Counted from the first letter of the stretch, positions 2,448 through 11,537 are shown. The stretch is DNA of 13,054 nt from Candidatus Hadarchaeum sp. (GCF_049969415.1 NZ_JBMFOX010000028.1:1-13054), one strand, 5' to 3'. The notes: generated from the sequence alone by a model not told the origin. Numbers and translations are program-made.

Positions 2448-3200
2448 TTAAACGGCGGTATAGCCCCCGTCGATGACCAGTTCGGCCCCGGTCATGAACG
2501 AGGACTCGTCCGAAGCTAGGAACAGCGCGCCATAGGCAATTTCAATGGGTTCCGCCACCCTTTTCATCGGCGTTGGGCCTATCAGCTCTTTGGCCTTTTC
2601 AGGATCCTTTAACCAAGGCTCGTTCATCTCGGTTCTGGTGTTTCCCGGGTGAAGGGAGTTAACCCGGATGTTGTATTTGGCGTAGTCGGCAGCCATGGCC
2701 TTGGTTAACATCCTGACGCCGCCCTTGGAGGCATCGTACGAAGGCTCGTTCGGAAAGGCCACGATCCCCATGATCGATGAGGTGTTAATGATGGAGCCGC
2801 CCCCGGCCTTTTTCATCGCCGGCAGAATGTACTTGCAGCCGTAGAAGGTGCCGGTGAGGTTGATCTTGATGACCCTCTCCCATTCCTCCGGAGTGAGTTC
2901 TTCCGCGCTTTTTGATATCAGTATCCCCGCGTTGTTCACTAGTATGTCCACCTTGCCATATTTTTTCATGACTTCATCTACCACTTTTTGCCATTCCCCG
3001 GGCACGGTCACGTCGAGTCTCATAAACTCGGCCTTGCCACCGTTCCTCCTTATTTCATCGACCACCTTTTCTCCGGCTTGGGCAGAAATGTCTGTCACGA
3101 TCACTACGGCGCCTTCCCGCGCAAACAATGCCGCCTCGGTCCGGCCGATGCCACCGCCGGCACCGGTTATCAGAGCTACCTTACCGTCAAGCCTCCCCAT
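2448..3200 (-). CDS. Classical short-chain dehydrogenase/reductase (SDR), probably NAD(H)-dependent
   Basis: TGAGGGIG, acidic D at the end of beta2 (VTDI), NNAG, catalytic S...YDASK, NIRVNSLHPG and DGG. ATG at 3200 is preferred over the track's 3209 start because it lies about 30 nt from TTTAAA (3231-3236). Confidence 0.93.
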   Translation of the reverse strand: MGRLDGKVALITGAGGGIGRTEAALFAREGAVVIVTDISAQAGEKVVDEIRRNGGKAEFMRLDVTVPGEWQKVVDEVMKKYGKVDILVNNAGILISKSAEELTPEEWERVIKINLTGTFYGCKYILPAMKKAGGGSIINTSSIMGIVAFPNEPSYDASKGGVRMLTKAMAADYAKYNIRVNSLHPGNTRTEMNEPWLKDPEKAKELIGPTPMKRVAEPIEIAYGALFLASDESSFMTGAELVIDGGYTAV

Positions 3201-3230
3201 ATTAGTCAAAAAGAAGTAAGCAGCCGATGT

Positions 3231-3276
3231 TTTAAATTTTGCGCCACAGTTAAACGAGGTGACTAAGATTTTTATA
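3231..3276. promoter_or_regulatory. Back-to-back divergent archaeal promoters for the SDR (-) and hisD-like (+) genes
   Basis: TTTAAA at 3231-3236, about 30 nt from the SDR ATG. TTTATA at 3271-3276, about 30 nt from the ATG at 3307. Confidence 0.55.
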
Positions 3277-3306
3277 CAGAACAGCCAAGTGTGGTAAGGG
3301 TGTTGA

Positions 3307-4605
3307 ATGAGAATTATTGAGCTGGATAAAGCACCCGCTGAGGTAATTCAGACAATTTTGAGAAGAGGAATGAGGGATATCGAGTCCTTCATGGAAAAAG
3401 TAAAGCCAATCATGAAGGATGTTCAGAGCCGGGGAAATCAGGCGCTTGTTGAGTACATAAAGAAATTTGACGGCGCGGATCTGAAGGCGGACGAACTGAG
3501 GGTTTCAAAGGAAGAGATCGAGGAAGCCTATCGCTTGGTCGACTCCAAGGTGATGAAAGCGCTGAAAATAATGACGAAAAACGTGAGGCTCTTTCATAAA
3601 CGGCAGCTGCCTAAGGAACTGAGGGTAAAAATCTCACCGGGCGTTGAGGCGAGACGTCTGGTTGTGCCGATCGAGAGCGCTGGACTATACGTGCCCGGTG
3701 GCAAGGGGCGCTTCCCCAGCGTGGCGGTGCATCTGGCTGTGCCGGCAAAAATAGCCGGGGTATCGAGAACGGTGTTGTGCAGTCCTCCGATGAGCAACGG
3801 CAAGCTGGACCCAGCGACAATAGTGGCGGCAGATATGCAGGGCGTGGATGAAATTTACAAGATGGGCGGGGCACACGCCATAGCGGCGCTGGCCTACGGC
3901 ACCGAGACGATAAAACCAGTGCACTGCATTGCCGGCCCCGGAGGCCCTTATGTAACGGCGGCCAAGATGCTGGTGCAGCATATGGTAAAAACTGATTTGC
4001 CTGCTGGTCCCAGCGAGGGTTTGGTTCTGGCTGATTCCTCCGCGAATCCAAAGTTCGTCGCGGCGGATATTCTGAACGAGGCCGAACATGGCCCTGATTC
4101 GGCAGGGGTACTGGTGACGGACTCAATGGAGCTGGCTAAGGAAGTGGCCGCTTGCATCGATGAGATGATAGGAACCCTATCCGAGATGAGACAGAACTTT
4201 ATCAAGGAAAACATGCAGAAGTACAGCGCGATAATAGTCACGAAGAGTTTTGAGGAAAGCGTCAGGTTTGTCAACGATTATGCGGTTGAGCACTTGGTAA
4301 TTCAAACCAAGGACCCGGAGAAGACCCTCAGAATGATCAAGAACGCCGGTACTATCTGCGTGGGCGCCTATTCGCCAATTTCCGGAGGCAACTATGTGGT
4401 GGGTCCCAACCACGTGCTCCCCACCGGCGGCACGGCCAAATGGACCTCGGGTCTGGACGTGGAGACCTTTTTGAAGAAGCCAACAGTTGAAAAGCTCAGC
4501 AGGAAGGGGCTGGAGTCGCTGAAGGAGGCCTTGGTCACTATAGCCGAGTATGAGGGGTTCCCGGCCCACGCCAATTCAGCAAAGATAAGGTTTGAGAAGC
4601 AATGA
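3307..4605 (+). CDS. Histidinol dehydrogenase (HisD)-family protein, divergent paralogue
   Basis: GLYVPGG, GGAHAIAALAYGT, GPG, AGPSE, AEH, EHL, GPNHVLPTGG and EG..AHA motifs are present. NEAEHG replaces SQAEHD and GNY replaces GDY, so no symbol is assigned. Confidence 0.92.
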   Translation: MRIIELDKAPAEVIQTILRRGMRDIESFMEKVKPIMKDVQSRGNQALVEYIKKFDGADLKADELRVSKEEIEEAYRLVDSKVMKALKIMTKNVRLFHKRQLPKELRVKISPGVEARRLVVPIESAGLYVPGGKGRFPSVAVHLAVPAKIAGVSRTVLCSPPMSNGKLDPATIVAADMQGVDEIYKMGGAHAIAALAYGTETIKPVHCIAGPGGPYVTAAKMLVQHMVKTDLPAGPSEGLVLADSSANPKFVAADILNEAEHGPDSAGVLVTDSMELAKEVAACIDEMIGTLSEMRQNFIKENMQKYSAIIVTKSFEESVRFVNDYAVEHLVIQTKDPEKTLRMIKNAGTICVGAYSPISGGNYVVGPNHVLPTGGTAKWTSGLDVETFLKKPTVEKLSRKGLESLKEALVTIAEYEGFPAHANSAKIRFEKQ

Positions 4606-5252
4606 ACGCACACAAGCTCGGGCTGAATTTAATATCGGCTGACGTGAACCACGTCAGCTTAGAAAGGAGAACCACTGAGCTGGTGATTCAGGGTGAAATT
4701 TCGCTGAAGAACAAAGTTGAGTCTGAAATCAGCACCGGCTTGGATTTTCTGGATCACATGCTGGACCAAGTTAGATTCGCCGGTTGTTTCAACCTTAGAC
4801 TGAAGATGGGGTCGACAAAAAAGAAATTAAGCCACACCATCTGTGAGGATTCCGGAATCATGCTGGGGAACCTGGTGCTGAATCTGTTCAAGCAGAGAAA
4901 GGATAAGGTGGGCGTCAACGGCTATGGTTTTTCGGTGAGAGTTATGGATGAGTCTAGATCTAGGGTTTGCCTCAGCGTTGAGGGCCGGAGCAATTCCTTC
5001 ATCGAGCTGCCGAAATGCCTTGAGGATGCGGACCACGTTGAGGACGTCCTGAACCGGGACATGGTTGCGTTTTTTGAGGGGTTTGCCCAGGGTTGCCGGG
5101 CTACCGTCCACGTCCAGATTGAGCGGGCCAGCGATCCCCACCATGCTTGGGAGGCGGCCTGCCGTGCGCTCGGTGACTGTATCCGTGAGACCTTGAGGGA
5201 AAACAGCTGGAAAATCGGCCAGATTGGAGGCATAAAAGGGACGCTGGACTGA
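4602..5252 (+). CDS. Imidazoleglycerol-phosphate dehydratase (HisB/IGPD)-family protein, divergent paralogue
   Basis: RRTTE, STGLDFLDHML, SHTICEDSGIMLG, MDES, EGR, TVHV, DPHHAWEA and C-terminal KGTL. ATGA overlap with the hisD-like stop. Confidence 0.85.
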   Translation: MNAHKLGLNLISADVNHVSLERRTTELVIQGEISLKNKVESEISTGLDFLDHMLDQVRFAGCFNLRLKMGSTKKKLSHTICEDSGIMLGNLVLNLFKQRKDKVGVNGYGFSVRVMDESRSRVCLSVEGRSNSFIELPKCLEDADHVEDVLNRDMVAFFEGFAQGCRATVHVQIERASDPHHAWEAACRALGDCIRETLRENSWKIGQIGGIKGTLD

Positions 5253-5344
5253 ATTCGTTTCGAAAATGAAGTATAAAAAAAGCAAGGCTTAAATTTATCC
5301 ACCTTGAAAAATAGACAAGCGGAGCAAGAAGCAGGGGTGGCAGA

Positions 5345-6406
5345 ATGAGTACAGAAGCAATCTTGAAAATCGACCGTGTGAGTAAGAAATACGAGGAATG
5401 CGAGGCCCTGCGTGAAGTCAGCTTTTCCGTGAATAAGGGAGAACTCGTGGTCATCTTGGGCCCATCGGGTTCTGGCAAAAGCACTCTGTTGATGTGCATT
5501 GCTGGTTTTGTTAAGCCAGATTCGGGGGACATCATCCTCGATGGAAAGAGGATTAACGACGTGCCGCCATATCGCAGAAATGTCGGGGTCGTTTTTCAAA
5601 GCATGGCGCTCTTTCCGAACATGAATGTCTTTGATAATATTGCCTACCCGCTGAAGATAAGAAAACTGCCCAAGGACGAGATAAAAAAGAAAGTCGAGAG
5701 AATGCTGGAAATCGTCGGACTGGCTGGGCTGGGTAGCCGGCGGATAACTCAGCTTAGTGGTGGCCAGCAGCAGCGGGTCGCCATCGCCCGGACCCTCGTG
5801 TTTGAACCGTCTATTCTTCTTCTCGACGAACCGCTGGGTGCTCTCGACAGAAAACTCAGAGAGGAAATGCAAGGTGAGATTAAGAAGATTCACGACAGGG
5901 TCGGTGCGACTACTTTATTAGTAACCCACGATCAGGAAGAAGCCATGACCATGGGTGACAGAATACTCGTCATAAATGGCGGAAGAATAGAGCAGATGGG
6001 AACCCCTGAGGAAATCTACAACGATCCGAAGACGCTGTTTGTTTCGGAGTTCATTGGTACAACAAACATCTTTAATGGTGTCGCGGTGAAAAAGGATGGC
6101 AGAACAGTTTTCAAGTCCGTGGAAGGAGTTATCCTCCCCCTCGCCAAGGAGGCCAAGGGCGAAGGCCATGTTTCGATTAAGGCGGAGCACATTAAACTTT
6201 TCGGAAACCGGCCAAAGGACGATATTTTTGCATTGGAAGCCATAGTGGCGCAGAACTTCTTCTCAGGCAACTTCATTAAGTACGAACTTGATCTCGAAGG
6301 AACCATTATCAAGGCGATTGACCGGGACCCAAAGCAAGTTTTTAAGCAGGGACAAAAGGTCTACATGAAAGTAACTCCGGAGAACGTTAGATGGTTCCCA
6401 AAATAA
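5345..6406 (+). CDS. ABC transporter ATP-binding subunit (PotA/polyamine-iron-thiamine class)
   Basis: Walker [10 protein letters not shown]-loop VFQ, signature [13 protein letters not shown], Walker B LLLDEP, H-loop VTHDQEEA and a C-terminal TOBE-like region. RBS GGGGTGG. Confidence 0.95.
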
Positions 6407-6486
6407 TTTTTAACTTTTAATAACAGGCCGTTTAAAAATCATATAAGTCGATTTTTGGTTTCGGCCGTTTCACCGCTAAAATTTTC

Positions 6487-6670
6487 TCATTTTTCACCGA
6501 CGAGCCCCTGAAAAGTTTCTTCTATTTTCTTTCTCTCGGGATGTAAAAATCCTCCAGATGTGGGCTAAAAGTTATTGAAATGTGTGGGGCGTCAATTCTT
6601 TCAATCGGTGCTTCAAGATAGTCAAAGGCTTCTTCGGCAATGGTTGCATCAGTCTCTGCTCTCCGGTACC
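6487..6670 (-). pseudogene. Frameshifted C-terminal remnant of a 2-oxoacid/acetoin dehydrogenase E1 beta subunit (transketolase C-terminal domain)
   Basis: Minus strand reads GTG/[frameshift]/AETDATIAEEAFDYLEAPIERIDAPHISITFSPHLEDFYIP/[frameshift]/KIEETFQGLVGEK*. This matches the PdhB/AcoB C-terminal pattern G.GAEIAA.IAEEAFDYLDAPI.RV.A.D.P.PFS..LE...IP. No upstream part of the gene is present. Confidence 0.8.
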
Positions 6671-6700
6671 ATCCACTTTTTCTTGGCACTGCTAATGGGT

Positions 6701-6712
6701 AAAATATTTAAA
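6701..6712 (+). promoter_or_regulatory. Putative TATA box for the (likely leaderless) solute-binding protein gene
   Basis: AAAATATTTAAA ends 24 nt before the ATG at 6736. This argues against the track's 6712 start, which overlaps the box. Confidence 0.6.
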
Positions 6713-6735
6713 TGGCGCCATATAATTTAGCTCGT

Positions 6736-7845
6736 ATGAAAAAGAGTATAGTGATTGCAGTTATAGTAGGGATAGTGATTGTGGTAGGGGCAGCAATTTG
6801 GATTGTAGGTCAACCGTCAACTACAGCAGAGAAGCCGAAGAGCATAGTTGTCCGGGCGTGGGGCGGTGGCTGGGAGCGCGCACTTGATGAGGCTGTGAGC
6901 AAGGCATTTGAAGAGGCAACTGGAATAAAAGTTGAATACGATTACACCGAGGACAGTGAGCTGCAGACGCGACTTCGTGAGATAATACCTGCAGGGCAGG
7001 TGCCGCCTGTTGATGTAAACTGGACCATATCTACCAACTCGTATCTGGAAGCGCAGTGGGGGCTCGTTTCTCCGATGTCTCTATCTGAGGTTCCAAACCT
7101 TGCCAAGATGAGGCCTGAGGCGAAGCCCGGGGCAGACGTAATGGTGTCATACGGTGACAAATGGCCGTATGTCAACGTGTATGCCTACACCTACGTGTTG
7201 GCATATGTGCCGAGCTTGGTTTCGGAAGTGCCAGATTCTTGGCGGGTGCTCTGGGAGCCGCAGTACAAGGGCAAAATAGCGATGTACGACGATGGCATAG
7301 GTTTCCACGCAGTTCTGGCCAGACTGGCGGGCGTTGAGATGAGCGAGGTCTTAGCCCATCCTGAAAAGATGGAGGCGGCATGGGACCTGCTCAAGACCTT
7401 GGCCCCAAGCATCGGGGGACTTGGTGAAGACCCGGACTTCTCCATGTGGATCGAGAGAAAGGAAATGGCGCTGCTGGTTACCATCCTGACTAACGTCTTC
7501 GAGGCGAAAAGAGCGGGAGCAGAGGTTGCTTGGGTGGTTCCTAAGGAAGGCGTTGAAGTGCACACAGATGCTTTGGAAGTGGTTAAAAATCTGCCGCCAG
7601 AACGTGATTACTGGGCCAAGCAGTACATCAACATCGCCTGTGATCCAGAGGTCCAGGGCAAGTGGGCGGAACTTCTGGGATGTCCACCACTGGCCGTTGG
7701 CGCGCCGATTCCAGACTATATGAAGGGCGACCCCGCGTTCCCCACCGAGCCTGAGCACTGGGCAATGAACATATTTGTGCCGGAGAATGTCCTAGCGAAG
7801 TACCAGAAGGAATGGTTTGCTAGGTTCCAAGAAATCACGGGCTGA
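6736..7845 (+). CDS. ABC transporter substrate-binding protein (PotD/PotF-like), N-terminal TM anchor
   Basis: MKK plus a hydrophobic helix with no lipobox, an S/T linker, then WGG, FEEATGIKV, PDSW..LW.PQYKGKI, VVPKEG and PEVQ motifs. Adjacent to two permeases. Confidence 0.92.
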   Translation: MKKSIVIAVIVGIVIVVGAAIWIVGQPSTTAEKPKSIVVRAWGGGWERALDEAVSKAFEEATGIKVEYDYTEDSELQTRLREIIPAGQVPPVDVNWTISTNSYLEAQWGLVSPMSLSEVPNLAKMRPEAKPGADVMVSYGDKWPYVNVYAYTYVLAYVPSLVSEVPDSWRVLWEPQYKGKIAMYDDGIGFHAVLARLAGVEMSEVLAHPEKMEAAWDLLKTLAPSIGGLGEDPDFSMWIERKEMALLVTILTNVFEAKRAGAEVAWVVPKEGVEVHTDALEVVKNLPPERDYWAKQYINIACDPEVQGKWAELLGCPPLAVGAPIPDYMKGDPAFPTEPEHWAMNIFVPENVLAKYQKEWFARFQEITG

Positions 7846-7890
7846 AGCCGGGATTAATCCCTACCATAGGCATGAAGGGGCGCAATTACT

Positions 7891-8790
7891 ATGGCGGCTG
7901 AGAGAGATTCCGATTCGATGAAGGCGAAAATTTACCTTTGGGCGAGAAAAAGAGTGGGTTATCTACTAACCCTCCCGGCATTAGTTTCCGTGGGAATAAT
8001 GGCGGTTGGCCTTTTTTATTTTTCACTCGTTAGTTTTTTTAAATACGATATTATCCAGATTTTCATCCCTGTTTTTACCATAGAAAATTATGTTCGAGTA
8101 TTCGCGACGGAGGGCGTCGTTTCCTCTTTCATAAGGACTTTCACTCTCACCACGATAACTTGCATACTGTGCCTTCTCATCGGAATTCCCTACGCGTATT
8201 TTATGGTGAGAACCAAGTCACTGATGCTCAAAAGGGCGCTGCTATTGATGACTTTGGTCCCCTTTTTCATAGGGGAAATCGTCAAGGCCTATTCTTGGCT
8301 GATAATATTGGGTGAGAAAGGACTGCTGGGGTCGGTGGCCCAACAGCTGTTTCATACCCCTATCAGCTTGGTCAACACACCCTATGCCGTTCTGATCGGG
8401 CTTCTTCATATGTTGCTACCCATGACAATTCTTCTCATCGCTCCCGCGGTGACCGCAGTTAGCGAATACACGGAAATGGCGGCCCAGAACCTCGGAGCCA
8501 CCCCCAGGCAGTGCTTCTTCCACATTGTCCTGCCCCAGCTAAAACCGGGAATCCTTGGAGCGCTGATAGTGACGTTTGCCATAGGGGCCACCGAATACGC
8601 AAACCCAGACCTGCTGGGCGGCGGCGTGTTTGACTTTGTGGCTAACGTGATGTACATGATGATTTTCAACGCCGTGAATTATCCCTACGGTGCGGCGATG
8701 GGCGTGGTTCTCGTGATAACGCTTTCGGCGATTGTTTACATAATCCTTAGAATAGGAAAGATCGGAAACATCTTCATCAGAGGAAGGTGA
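7891..8790 (+). CDS. ABC transporter permease (PotB-like)
   Basis: About six hydrophobic segments, an EAA-type loop EMAAQNLGA...F..IVLPQLKPG, and P.LLGG. An alternative ATG lies at 7918. Confidence 0.92.
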   Translation: MAAERDSDSMKAKIYLWARKRVGYLLTLPALVSVGIMAVGLFYFSLVSFFKYDIIQIFIPVFTIENYVRVFATEGVVSSFIRTFTLTTITCILCLLIGIPYAYFMVRTKSLMLKRALLLMTLVPFFIGEIVKAYSWLIILGEKGLLGSVAQQLFHTPISLVNTPYAVLIGLLHMLLPMTILLIAPAVTAVSEYTEMAAQNLGATPRQCFFHIVLPQLKPGILGALIVTFAIGATEYANPDLLGGGVFDFVANVMYMMIFNAVNYPYGAAMGVVLVITLSAIVYIILRIGKIGNIFIRGR

Positions 8791-8794
8791 TGGC

Positions 8795-9571
8795 TTGAGA
8801 TGGTACACCAAGATCTTTTTGGCCGGCATCATGTTATTTTTTATTCTTCCCCTGTTGATCGTGTTGATATGCTCCTTCACTAGTGCTCCGAGGGTGACCT
8901 TTCCTCCCGAAGGATTTTCAGTTCAATGGTACTTCACTGCTTTAACCTCTCCATGGTTCCAAACGGGCTTGAAAAACAGCTTGATTGCCGCAACATTCTG
9001 CACAATTTTAGCGATACCTATAGGCGCTTTAGCTTCCTATGGCCTCCTCCGATATAAAATAAAGGCAAGAAACGCGATACAAGTTTATCTGCTGCTTCCC
9101 TTTACCGTTCCGCTGGTGGTGCAGGGCATCTCATTGCTGTTTATCTATGCTCGCGCTGGCTTGGTGGGCAACATCTTGGGAATCGGTTTCGCCCTTATGG
9201 AGATAAATCTTCCTTTCATGCTCTGGTCCACCTCTTCTGCCGTCAATCGCATGGATCCAAATCTGGAGAACGCCTCGATGAGTCTGGGAGCCAATGAGAT
9301 CTACACGTTCATCCACATTACAATTCCGGCACTACTGCCCGGGATAATGTCGGGAGGGCTGCTTATGTTTGTCTTGGGTCTGAATGAATTTGTGACTAGC
9401 CTTATGCTGACGACGATTTGGTCGGCCACGCTTCCAATAAACATGTACACCAGGATCAAGACGGCGATTACGCCAGATGTAGCGGCGGCAGCAGCGATAT
9501 ACATAATTATCGCGGTAATTGCCATTATTATACTGGATAAGACAGTGGGCATCGAATCTTATCTAAAGTAA
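8795..9571 (+). CDS. ABC transporter permease (PotC-like)
   Basis: FPPEGFSVQWY, EAA loop LENASMSLGA...ITIPALLPG, and NEF/TLP motifs. TTG start with GGTGA RBS at 8786-8790. Confidence 0.92.
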   Translation: MRWYTKIFLAGIMLFFILPLLIVLICSFTSAPRVTFPPEGFSVQWYFTALTSPWFQTGLKNSLIAATFCTILAIPIGALASYGLLRYKIKARNAIQVYLLLPFTVPLVVQGISLLFIYARAGLVGNILGIGFALMEINLPFMLWSTSSAVNRMDPNLENASMSLGANEIYTFIHITIPALLPGIMSGGLLMFVLGLNEFVTSLMLTTIWSATLPINMYTRIKTAITPDVAAAAAIYIIIAVIAIIILDKTVGIESYLK

Positions 9572-9666: not shown

Positions 9667-10200
9667 ATGGCAAAGGAGCCGATAAAAGAGGGCGAGAAAG
9701 ATAGGGTAAAAGAAGCTCAAAAGCCAGAGCAACCTAAGGGGAAGAAAAAGTTCACCGAGGTGGACCCGAGAACGCTCATCTCCGTCCCCACGATCCTCTG
9801 TCCCGTTTGCGGCCTCCCCATGGAGATAAAGGGGAGAAAGGAAGTTGAAAAGACGGCGCGGACGCTGCGGGGCAAGACTACGAGAAAAATCCCCCATCTG
9901 GTCTATCAGTGTGCTAAGGATAAGACTGAATTTAACCTGAACCTTGAGCGTCGTGGGGGTGGCTGCTTCATCGCCACCGCGGCCTTCGGTACCTCGATGG
10001 CGCATGAGATCAACGTACTCCGGTCTTTCCGGGACAACTATCTCATGAGGGAGAGCGCCGGCAGGCTGTTCGTCTCGCTCTATTACAGAACCTCACCCAC
10101 CATCGCTAGAATGATCAGTAGATCTAAGACGCTGAAATTCATCACCCGCGTCTTGTTGACACCGATCGTAAAAGCCGTCCAGAAAACCGTGGGACTTTGA
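9667..10200 (+). CDS. Protein with Zn-ribbon-like middle region and C-terminal CFI-box-CTERM domain
   Basis: CPVC...YQCAKD, then GGGCFIATAAFG...VLRSFRDNYL...GRLFVSLYYRTSP.IA, the hallmark of the CFI-box-CTERM domain. TTTAATA at 9629-9635 upstream. Confidence 0.85.
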   Translation: MAKEPIKEGEKDRVKEAQKPEQPKGKKKFTEVDPRTLISVPTILCPVCGLPMEIKGRKEVEKTARTLRGKTTRKIPHLVYQCAKDKTEFNLNLERRGGGCFIATAAFGTSMAHEINVLRSFRDNYLMRESAGRLFVSLYYRTSPTIARMISRSKTLKFITRVLLTPIVKAVQKTVGL

Positions 10201-10688: not shown

Positions 10689-10781
10689 GACTTTAAGATT
10701 CAAAAGCAGCTTACTTTTTTAGATGCAGCGCACTTTTGGCAGCTTTTATTGATCTTCTAGGGGTAAATATTGGTGGATGGC

Positions 10782-11537
10782 ATGAGACCCTCAAGATTTC
10801 TCTCCGGTTTTCGTCCGGTTTTCACGGCTCTGTTAATTTTCCTGACGTTGAACTTCAGTTTCTTTGCCGTCCTTTTCCTTTACCCCTCCTTACTGGATTG
10901 GCTGTGGCTCTCTGCGGACCGACCTTGGGGCATCTTAACCTCGGTTTTTTCTCACGTGGACTTGGAGCACATTTTCAGCAACGTCGCGGGTTTTATCTTT
11001 GCCTCGGCCTTGTTCATTCTGATCAACCTGAGAAAATCCAGACAGACCAGGCATCGGTTGAGCCGCCGTTTTTTATTGCTGGCATTTCTCGCAGGGATTG
11101 GTGCCAATGTTCTGGAGTATCCTTTCCTTTTGACCAGCCTGAAATCTGCATACGGTGCCTCAGGGGTTGTCTACGGTGCGCTGGGTATCGTCTTATCATG
11201 CGCGATTCAAGATCTTCCGGACAATTTTAGGTTCTTGATGCGGGGGCGCCAGCGCTTGGCAGGCAGGAGAAGAAAGAGAGTTCTCAGATTTAGCGCTATC
11301 GGAGTGAAATTTTATTCCAGCCTGATGTCCCTTTCGCTAGTCATTTCACTGTTGATTTTGGTCGTCTTGGATGTCAGCAGCTTCCTAAGCGTTGCACCGG
11401 GCGTCGATGTCTTTGCCCACGGAGTCGGGTTTCTAATCGGTTTTTTATCCTTTGGAGCCCTGCGAATTCTCGACAGAAAATATAGAAGACATCTGAGCAA
11501 CTCGAATGGCCCGCGCTTCTTCGGCTCTATCCTCTGA
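10782..11537 (+). CDS. Rhomboid-family intramembrane serine protease
   Basis: PWGILTSVFSH..LEHIFSN, catalytic GASG and AHGVG.LIG, with multiple TM segments. ATG 10782 has GGTGG upstream; the track's TTG at 10770 is an alternative start. Confidence 0.88.
   Translation: MRPSRFLSGFRPVFTALLIFLTLNFSFFAVLFLYPSLLDWLWLSADRPWGILTSVFSHVDLEHIFSNVAGFIFASALFILINLRKSRQTRHRLSRRFLLLAFLAGIGANVLEYPFLLTSLKSAYGASGVVYGALGIVLSCAIQDLPDNFRFLMRGRQRLAGRRRKRVLRFSAIGVKFYSSLMSLSLVISLLILVVLDVSSFLSVAPGVDVFAHGVGFLIGFLSFGALRILDRKYRRHLSNSNGPRFFGSIL

Follow-up and report, generated by a model that had tools for sequence, protein, structure and literature searches.

What do two enzymes of histidine biosynthesis do beside a solute importer, in an archaeon in whose genome no upper histidine pathway is found? 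The question is raised by positions 2448-9571 of a 13,054-nucleotide stretch from Candidatus Hadarchaeum sp. (NZ_JBMFOX010000028.1:1-13054; the whole stretch is called the window below), where a gene resembling histidinol dehydrogenase (HisD) and one resembling imidazoleglycerol-phosphate dehydratase (IGPD, HisB) stand next to a short-chain dehydrogenase/reductase (SDR) gene and a four-gene ATP-binding cassette (ABC) importer. It corresponds to contig C28 of a bin (GCF_049969415.1, here G000) of 1.47 Mb in 138 contigs, 95% complete, and the database proteins nearest to its own carry the name Candidatus Hadarchaeum. A first-pass annotation of the window had proposed an uptake or catabolic pathway built from repurposed HisD and HisB paralogues. 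We favour, with slightly better than even confidence, a reading in which the module imports imidazole compounds that resemble late intermediates of the pathway and carry a three-carbon (C3) side chain, and converts them to histidine, for salvage in this archaeon and for catabolism in bacteria. The gene set probably combines late histidine enzymes with an importer and an SDR where it serves salvage, and with hut genes where it serves catabolism.

Gene families were assigned from Pfam and NCBIfam profile scores against curated cut-offs. The HisD-like gene (3307-4605, + strand) matches PF00815 with 512 bits and TIGR00069 with 493.2 bits (cut-off 243.8), and the IGPD-like gene (4602-5252, +) matches PF00475 with 94.8 bits (cut-off 27); read in the sequence, the stop codon of the first and the start codon of the second overlap in an ATGA at 4602-4605. 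A classical SDR gene (2448-3209, -; PF13561 233.8 bits, PF00106 217.9 bits) is divergent from the pair, separated from it by 97 bp (3210-3306) with A/T-rich, TATA-like stretches that make this intergenic region a possible shared promoter region. Profile matches and sequence bear out the gene calls of the first-pass annotation, with the ATGA coupling, the divergent SDR and the four-gene importer, and also its remark that no other his genes lie in the window: with the same profiles none was found among the remaining open reading frames (ORFs), which encode a NiFe-hydrogenase C-terminus, HycI, a cNMP-binding protein, PdxT, a CFI-box-CTERM protein, a rhomboid and AroA. All seven module genes have dN/dS values of 0.03-0.06 relative to G007 and the metagenome contig L143 (0.04 for the IGPD-like gene), and hence are working genes and not relics.

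The idea of repurposed paralogues beside canonical copies did not hold. G000 has one HisD, that of the window, and two IGPD homologues, the second of which is a more divergent paralogue on contig C14. HisG and PRA-CH (HisI) were not found in G000, HisA/F are represented there only by three partial His_biosynth matches of 24-30 bits, and tblastn searches of the genome with the proteins of a bacterial locus, L033, gave no match for HutH or HutU. The pair is shared with G002 (93% identity) and G007 (85-86%), and none of these three module-bearing bins (95%, 71% and 92% complete) yielded HisG or HisA/F; no his genes flank the pair in the 13 kb of the window or in the part that was read of L143, a related 33-kb contig. 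G004 and G006 carry canonical his operons and no module pair, other Hadarchaeales have adjacent canonical hisB-hisD genes whose products are 27-34% and 36-47% identical to the window proteins, and in G001 HisG, HisA/F and HisD were all not found. Because this lineage is without the upper histidine pathway and without the Hut pathway, the module most likely salvages an external imidazole C3 compound to L-histidine that is then used to make proteins.

The way in which the module has been lost within the genus indicates which genes belong together. G001 and G003 retain the gene order AroA, rhomboid, CFI-box protein, the two permeases (C, then B) and binding protein, and at this syntenic site the ATPase, the IGPD-like gene and HisD are absent, with the SDR present as frameshifted fragments only. 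In G001 the remnant (L224:9897-10318) consists of two separate matches to residues 39-100 and 108-180, 48-55% identical, and in G003 (L225:9155-9265) of residues 141-176, 46% identical. The ATPase gene is present in G007 and L143 and is missing beside the binding-protein gene in G001 and G003. Since the SDR and the ATPase went with the pair, a functional unit of SDR, HisD, IGPD-like protein and ATPase is supported.

The same association recurs in unrelated lineages. Metagenomes scanned with the C-terminal half of the variant IGPD family gave 72 loci, and these, L033 and the window were mapped by tblastn against reference proteins. L212 and L214 proved to be canonical IGPD and were set aside, which leaves 72 variant loci; 25 of them are well flanked (1.5 kb or more upstream and 3 kb or more downstream). 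Kin among the loci are not independent and short loci depress the counts. HisD was found in 51 of the 72 loci, in all 25 well-flanked ones and in 27/38 clusters at 90% identity; the 21 loci without it have less than 1.5 kb on the relevant side, have the IGPD gene at a contig end or, in one case (L158), have a layout that places HisD over 4.4 kb downstream. In 39/72 loci (15/25 well-flanked, 26/38 clusters at 90% identity) the IGPD-like gene has an SDR gene no more than 1.5 kb away. The conserved HisD/HisB/SDR linkage that the first-pass annotation had made its test is therefore real. The 25 well-flanked loci further hold an ABC ATPase (14), an SsuA/NMT1-type binding protein (12), HutH (9) and an FMN-dependent dehydrogenase (10), and a HisC-like aminotransferase gene directly precedes the IGPD-like gene in 18/72 loci.

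These loci fall into a few layouts. B1 reads IclR / Zn-ADH, HisC-like, IGPD-like, SDR, HisD, SsuA-like binding protein, permease, ATPase, HutH, a dehydrogenase like FMN L-lactate dehydrogenase, a PTE-like protein and HutU/I/F, and scores 256 against 276.6 for the HisC-like protein (TIGR01141), 161 against 163.5 for the SsuA-like protein and 630 against 539 for HutH (TIGR01225). B2 has the IGPD-like gene, SDR, HutH or the FMN dehydrogenase, an importer and HisD, and B3 (L033, L183-L192, L198) has IGPD-like and HisD genes with or without HutHUI-M20-HutF and no SDR or importer. Within B3, L033, from an uncultured Solirubrobacterales bin, encodes an IGPD-like protein, a HisD-like protein with the same two zinc-site replacements as that of the window (Glu and Asn, the E/N type), HutH, HutU, a HutI-like protein, an M20 protein and an amidohydrolase. 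Layout A1, an SDR gene on the opposite strand followed by HisD and the IGPD-like gene, is that of the window, L143, L144 and the bacterial contig L207, where the neighbours are Lgt and a LysM-GH18 protein; in A2 (L179, L185, L205) HisD and the IGPD-like gene are followed by a HAD hydrolase. The hut genes embedded in the bacterial versions, together with an own genome devoid of the upper his pathway, strengthen the tie to histidine that the annotation had suspected. We infer histidine to be the product because the genome lacks the upper his pathway and the bacterial islands contain a bona fide HutH.

Among 151 genomes of the class of G041, no second variant was found outside G041 itself (350.7 bits; the next match, at 135.8, is canonical); G041 carries hisG, a possible hisH, hisA and hisF, with hisIE, on a contig of about 3.9 kb that ends just upstream of hisG. 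A separate scan of genome contigs for the IGPD family was discarded, since one of its two patterns also caught canonical IGPD; among the 80 loci listed in it, the variant clade is represented only by L032 (the second Hadarchaeum paralogue) and L033, and 16 others that were checked are canonical.

Both His-like proteins carry the active-site substitutions that the first-pass annotation had noticed, as alignment with the solved structures 1K75 and 4MU0 confirms. Where E. coli HisD (1K75) has SQAEH and AGDYASGTNH, the HisD-like protein reads NEAEH and GGNYVVGPNH, that is, Gln259 is replaced by Glu and Asp360 by Asn, and His262, Glu326/His327, His367, Glu414 and His419 are retained. Of the four Zn ligands, Gln259, His262, Asp360 and His419' in E. 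coli numbering, two (His262 and His419) are kept. According to PMC11382572, the Zn ligands of both HisD and HpsN are a pair of His residues, with Asp in the equatorial and Gln in the axial position. The catalytic Glu326-His327 pair is present ('VEHLVIQT' compared with 'PEHLIIQT' in E. coli) and is kept in 121 of 122 aligned rows, the other row being truncated after it. The protein lies above the TIGR00069 cut-off and below that of NF010343 (288 vs 647). Among the 120 database homologues that match it best, 107 have both Glu and Asn at the two sites; of the other 13, one is truncated after Glu, ten have the canonical Gln/Asp and two have Gln/Cys. His367 is replaced by Ala or Ser in most of them and retained in the Hadarchaeum group. 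The source names of the homologues include Nitrososphaerota, Caldarchaeales, Thermofilum and Micrarchaeota, and in the metagenome loci all 37 HisD rows that lie outside his operons and are readable at all six signature positions have Glu and Asn (one long ORF, in L156, is misaligned and was left untyped). The loop G-S-A-P-L / G-R-Y-A/S-H was considered as a discriminator of substrates and dropped, given that canonical archaeal HisDs already deviate from the bacterial motif and that the HisD of a his operon, L208, shares the E/N form. Natural fusions were likewise no guide to the variant pair: the only longer homologue, P0231 (618 aa, an ENA metagenome), joins HisD and IGPD in a single chain, and both of its parts are canonical.

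In the IGPD-like protein, aligned with A. thaliana IGPD2 (4MU0), His74 is replaced by Thr, Arg99 by Gly, His145 by Ala, His55 by Ala and Lys177 by Arg, and His47, His73, Glu77, Arg121, His169, His170 and Glu173 are retained. The Mn ligands of IGPD are His47, His73, His74, Glu77, His145, His169, His170 and Glu173 in A. thaliana numbering, and its phosphate-binding residues are Arg99, Arg121, His55 and Lys177; six of the eight ligands remain and, of the phosphate-binding residues, only Arg121. All 13 NCBIfam HisB equivalog models score the protein below their cut-offs (best NF002111, 103.2 vs 231), and its Atlas model has the IGPD fold (pTM 0.92; TM 0.89-0.93 to IGPD clusters). The family comprises about 100 clusters of proteins of ~213 residues, several of them labelled 'hypothetical' by NCBI in Solirubrobacterales and Thermoleophilales bins, and is recognised by H-[TV]-x-x-E-D, AFFEGF, DPHHAWEA and GVKGTLD. 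In a 48-sequence tree, made by a quick search and midpoint-rooted for drawing only, 27 variant and 21 canonical IGPDs are split with 100% SH-aLRT support, and the canonical IGPDs of Hadarchaeales relatives retain all eight ligands and Arg99. Position 55 is Ala in the window protein and Gly in its paralogue, His or Arg in variant IGPDs that lie in his operons or beside HAD genes, and Tyr, Trp or His in the bacterial islands; such differences fit a lost phosphate binding, and a non-phosphorylated imidazole substrate would accord with the loss of Arg99 and His55.

The second IGPD-like paralogue (G000 contig C14, L007:8227-8871, +) is 42% identical to the window protein, lacks His73 as well and has the signature H-T-G-A-T-E-G-R. 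It lies downstream of AlaRS, LeuRS and a DUF434/DUF5616 protein and upstream of an Opp-type ABC operon, and it occurs in G000, G001, G002 and G007, of which G001 has no HisD.

A chain of reactions can be proposed from the chemistry of the parent families. The ABC importer would bring in from outside an imidazole that carries a C3 side chain. If its chemistry resembles that of IGPD, the variant enzyme would dehydrate a ring-adjacent 2,3-diol to a 2-keto compound (imidazole glycerol to imidazole acetol), the SDR would interconvert 2-keto and 2-hydroxy forms, a HisC-like aminotransferase encoded outside the window would add the amino group to give histidinol, and HisD would oxidise the primary alcohol to the acid, from histidinol to histidine. 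Through the SDR and, in the islands, an FMN 2-hydroxyacid dehydrogenase, imidazolyl-propanediol and imidazole lactate could enter the same funnel. Histidinol is a candidate substrate, and so, probably, is imidazole glycerol, imidazole acetol or a similar compound. In uncultured Solirubrobacterales-like bacteria the core lies within IclR-regulated catabolic islands with a HisC-like aminotransferase, an SsuA-type importer, the FMN dehydrogenase and HutH/U/I/F, where histidine would be burnt. An alternative order, modelled on HpsO, HpsP and HpsN, would have the SDR reduce the acetol to a diol and HisD oxidise this to imidazole lactate, which would pass through imidazole pyruvate to histidine; it would use every conserved enzyme but would suit an E/N HisD in a his operon less well. 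In a preprint on E. coli co-cultures, extracellular histidinol above 200 uM fed all his auxotrophs except hisD (bioRxiv 10.64898/2026.10.08.757639), and hence such substrates exist, at least in the laboratory. We also consider it possible, though less likely than not, that an undescribed route spanning two domains of life (IGPD variant, SDR, E/N HisD, HisC-like aminotransferase and 2-hydroxyacid dehydrogenase) funnels non-phosphorylated imidazole C3 compounds to histidine. Imidazole glycerol, imidazole acetol, imidazolyl-propanediol, imidazole lactate and histidinol would then be its candidate substrates, and the metal sites would have been rebuilt for substrates free of phosphate.

One candidate for the missing aminotransferase is a HisC-like gene on contig C11 of G000 (L229:424-3725; TIGR01141 228 vs 276.6), beside a D-2-hydroxyacid dehydrogenase gene and a convergent lactate-type MFS transporter gene, a group that may form a route from aryl- or imidazole-lactate to the amino acid. 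Orthologues of this aminotransferase (74-84%) occur only in the his-less genus members G001, G003 and G007.

With biosynthetic HisB and HisD the module shares the PF00475 and PF00815 folds and families, the adjacency of hisD and hisB seen in relatives, the Glu-His pair of HisD and six of eight IGPD ligands, but it differs in its changed Zn and Mn ligands, its attached SDR and importer and its lack of an upper pathway, and the bacterial pair is joined to hut genes. The two proteins are thus HisD and IGPD superfamily members that depart from the ligand sets of those enzymes, and the IGPD-like one also falls below the curated equivalog scores. Hut operons adjoin the pair in bacteria, where it directly precedes hutH-hutU-hutI-M20-hutF in L033, L188 and L198; the window's own genome has no match for HutH or HutU. 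The arrangement of HutH, HutU, HutI and HutF/M20 is the actinobacterial hut layout, and we know of no described hut operon that includes IGPD-like, HisD-like, HisC-like and SDR genes. An actinobacterium, Paenarthrobacter (Arthrobacter) histidinolovorans, reportedly oxidises external L-histidinol to histidine and then degrades the histidine; no description of a gene cluster for this growth was found. A literature search of full texts, exclusive of supplements, likewise returned no IGPD-like/HisD-like/SDR cluster, no histidinol or imidazole-glycerol utilisation genes and no account of histidine metabolism in Hadarchaeota.

The Hps system (HpsN, HpsO and HpsP), which degrades dihydroxypropanesulfonate, follows a similar logic, combining a HisD-family four-electron alcohol-to-acid dehydrogenase with SDR-type 2-keto/2-hydroxy oxidoreductases and an imported C3 compound. 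The window HisD-like protein matches HpsN chains with 216-221 bits and the window SDR matches HpsO with 156 bits. In PMC11382572, HpsN (sulfopropanediol 3-dehydrogenase) has a G-R-Y-A/S-H motif whose His126 binds Zn and the sulfonate, and it keeps the axial Gln and equatorial Asp; the motif is absent from the window protein, which has G-K-G-R-F there, and both ligands are changed. A sulfonate-cleaving enzyme is not nearby, and hut genes take its place in the bacterial versions. As to the SDR itself, adh_short and adh_short_C2 cover its whole length, it passes only the glucose 1-dehydrogenase subfamily model (250 vs 215) with equivalog cut-offs unreached, and in its own genome a tblastn search (E<=1e-5) returned only the self-match.

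The importer consists of an ATPase with a TOBE domain, PotA/PhnT2-like (5345-6406, +; TIGR01187 potA 363.8 vs 355.6; TIGR03265 359.9, below 457.7), a substrate-binding protein of the PotD/PhnS-like superfamily (SBP_bac_8; 6712-7845, +; PF13416 110.5 bits) and two permeases matching PF00528, one PotB-like (7891-8790, +) and one PotC-like (8795-9571, +). Like PotABCD it is a four-gene type I importer, its ATPase lies above the potA cut-off, and PotD entries are the nearest named solved relatives of its binding protein, following the best solved relative of all, 4EDP, an uncharacterised binding protein. Unlike in PotABCD, the binding protein and both permeases score below cut-off (PotD equivalog 47 vs 582; PotB 123 vs 348; PotC 121 vs 326) and the ATPase gene comes first, 306 bp before the binding-protein gene. 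The curated score of a polyamine importer is thus reached by the ATPase alone of the subunits, and in its case through a subfamily model (TIGR01187). In G007 (L226, C13, 5972-8129) about 2.1 kb lie between the ATPase and binding-protein genes.

Several observations weigh against the salvage of non-phosphorylated imidazole compounds by the whole module. Variant-clade IGPDs sit in ordinary his operons, in L170 (hisG-hisD-hisB-hisA-hisF-hisIE), in L211 (hisG-hisC-hisD-hisB) and in L208 (3719-10357; hisZ-hisG-hisA-hisF-hisD-hisB, in a bacterial WhiA/RapZ context), the last with an E/N HisD as well. The IGPDs of all three lack His74, Arg99 and His145, and the HisDs of L170 and L211 keep Asp360 and His367 and have Gln259 replaced by Arg or Ala. 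Both variant types are apparently able to serve biosynthesis, and since the variant clades also occur in such operons, the substitutions are traits of the clades and no proof of a new reaction, contrary to their use by the first-pass annotation as a sign of repurposing. The enzymes may still act on phosphorylated substrates, which the module would find hard to obtain. The three operons are of interest in themselves, as ligands taken to be invariant are replaced in apparently biosynthetic enzymes.

Further difficulties concern how tightly the parts are bound to one another. The SDR is missing in the bacterial versions L033, L183-L192 and L198, and L147, with ~1.3 kb on each side of its variant IGPD, has no HisD. 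The binding protein (92-98% identity) and permeases are intact in G001 and G003, both of which lack HisD and the window-type IGPD; because they stayed without the pair, the view that the binding protein serves only that unit is weakened. TATA-like, A/T-rich stretches precede the HisD-like, ATPase and binding-protein genes, and those ahead of the latter two may point to separate transcripts. ABC importers are also attached to the pair in bacteria, but these are SsuA/NMT1-type, and the window's binding protein and permeases belong to another family; of the transporter link drawn by the first-pass annotation, the recurrent attachment stands, and the tie to this PotABCD-like transporter is less firm than the annotation had it. 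The HisC-like aminotransferase on C11 is present in G001 and G003, which have no module; it is therefore not tied to the module, and its role may instead lie with aromatic amino acids. Every genome considered here is a metagenome bin.

Part of this evidence would suit another account, in which the module salvages histidinol only: HisD would do the work, the IGPD-like protein would be inherited along with it and have a different role or no role, and the SDR and transporter would be unrelated, serving polyamines for example. HisD is a full TIGR00069 member and its E/N form stands in the his operon L208, the pair occurs without SDR or importer in L033 and L183-L192, the genes for the binding protein and permeases are kept where the pair is missing, the ATPase scores as potA, and histidinol is exchanged between co-cultured cells in the preprint cited above (bioRxiv 10.64898/2026.10.08.757639). 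We nevertheless consider this account unlikely. It leaves aside that the IGPD-like gene is translationally coupled to HisD, under purifying selection with a dN/dS of 0.04, and beside HisD in every well-flanked locus, that the SDR decayed and the ATPase was lost along with the pair in G001 and G003, and that a HisC-like enzyme, which histidinol would not need, directly precedes the IGPD-like gene in a quarter of the loci.

The altered active sites could instead signal new chemistry with a product other than histidine, acting on another heterocyclic or amino-polyol substrate in the manner of HpsN. Two of eight Mn ligands and Arg99 are gone from the IGPD-like protein and two of four Zn ligands are altered in HisD, a D352A replacement inactivates HpsN (PMC11382572), the second IGPD-like paralogue persists without any HisD in G001, and the bacterial importer approaches the SsuA (sulfonate) type. 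Against this stand the HutH above its cut-off and the HutU/I/F inside the bacterial islands, the members of the same clades in the his operons L170, L208 and L211, and the missing HpsN signature with His126, and we regard it as quite improbable. Ordinary biosynthesis, with variant hisD and hisB genes and the other his genes missing through the incompleteness of the bins, is the least credible account and a very doubtful one, for although this is the only HisD of a genome in 138 contigs and variant IGPD and E/N HisD do occur in his operons elsewhere, HisG and HisA/F were not found in any of the three module-bearing bins but were in both canonical-operon members, HisI was not found in G000 and no his gene lies beside the pair in the window or in the part of L143 that was read.

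Upstream of the module (2-2000) lie the end of a NiFe-hydrogenase large subunit, a HycI maturation protease, a cNMP-binding domain protein and PdxT, which appear to be unrelated to it. Downstream come a CFI-box-CTERM domain protein (9667-10200, +; NF041770, 99 bits) and, close to it, a protein of the rhomboid family (10770-11537, +) that matches rhombosortase weakly (28 bits vs a cut-off of 84); the two may form a sorting-signal/protease pair, and their synteny is kept in G001, G003 and G007.

Should salvage of leaked imidazole compounds be the function of the module, the consequences reach beyond this genome. The two enzyme clades have supposedly essential ligands replaced (two of eight Mn ligands in IGPD; Gln/Asp to Glu/Asn in HisD) and yet are strongly selected, which bears on the annotation of proteins now called HisB, HisD or 'hypothetical', on predictions of auxotrophy from genomes, and on efforts to target IGPD and HisD with herbicides and drugs. 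The bacterial versions would be a new catabolic island that feeds the Hut pathway. Cross-feeding on the intermediates of a pathway, rather than on its end products, would gain a concrete genetic basis, with soil Actinomycetota growing on leaked intermediates and histidine auxotrophs like this Hadarchaeum living on them. The archaeon itself would have dropped eight of the ten steps of a costly pathway and would still make histidine from what its neighbours leak.

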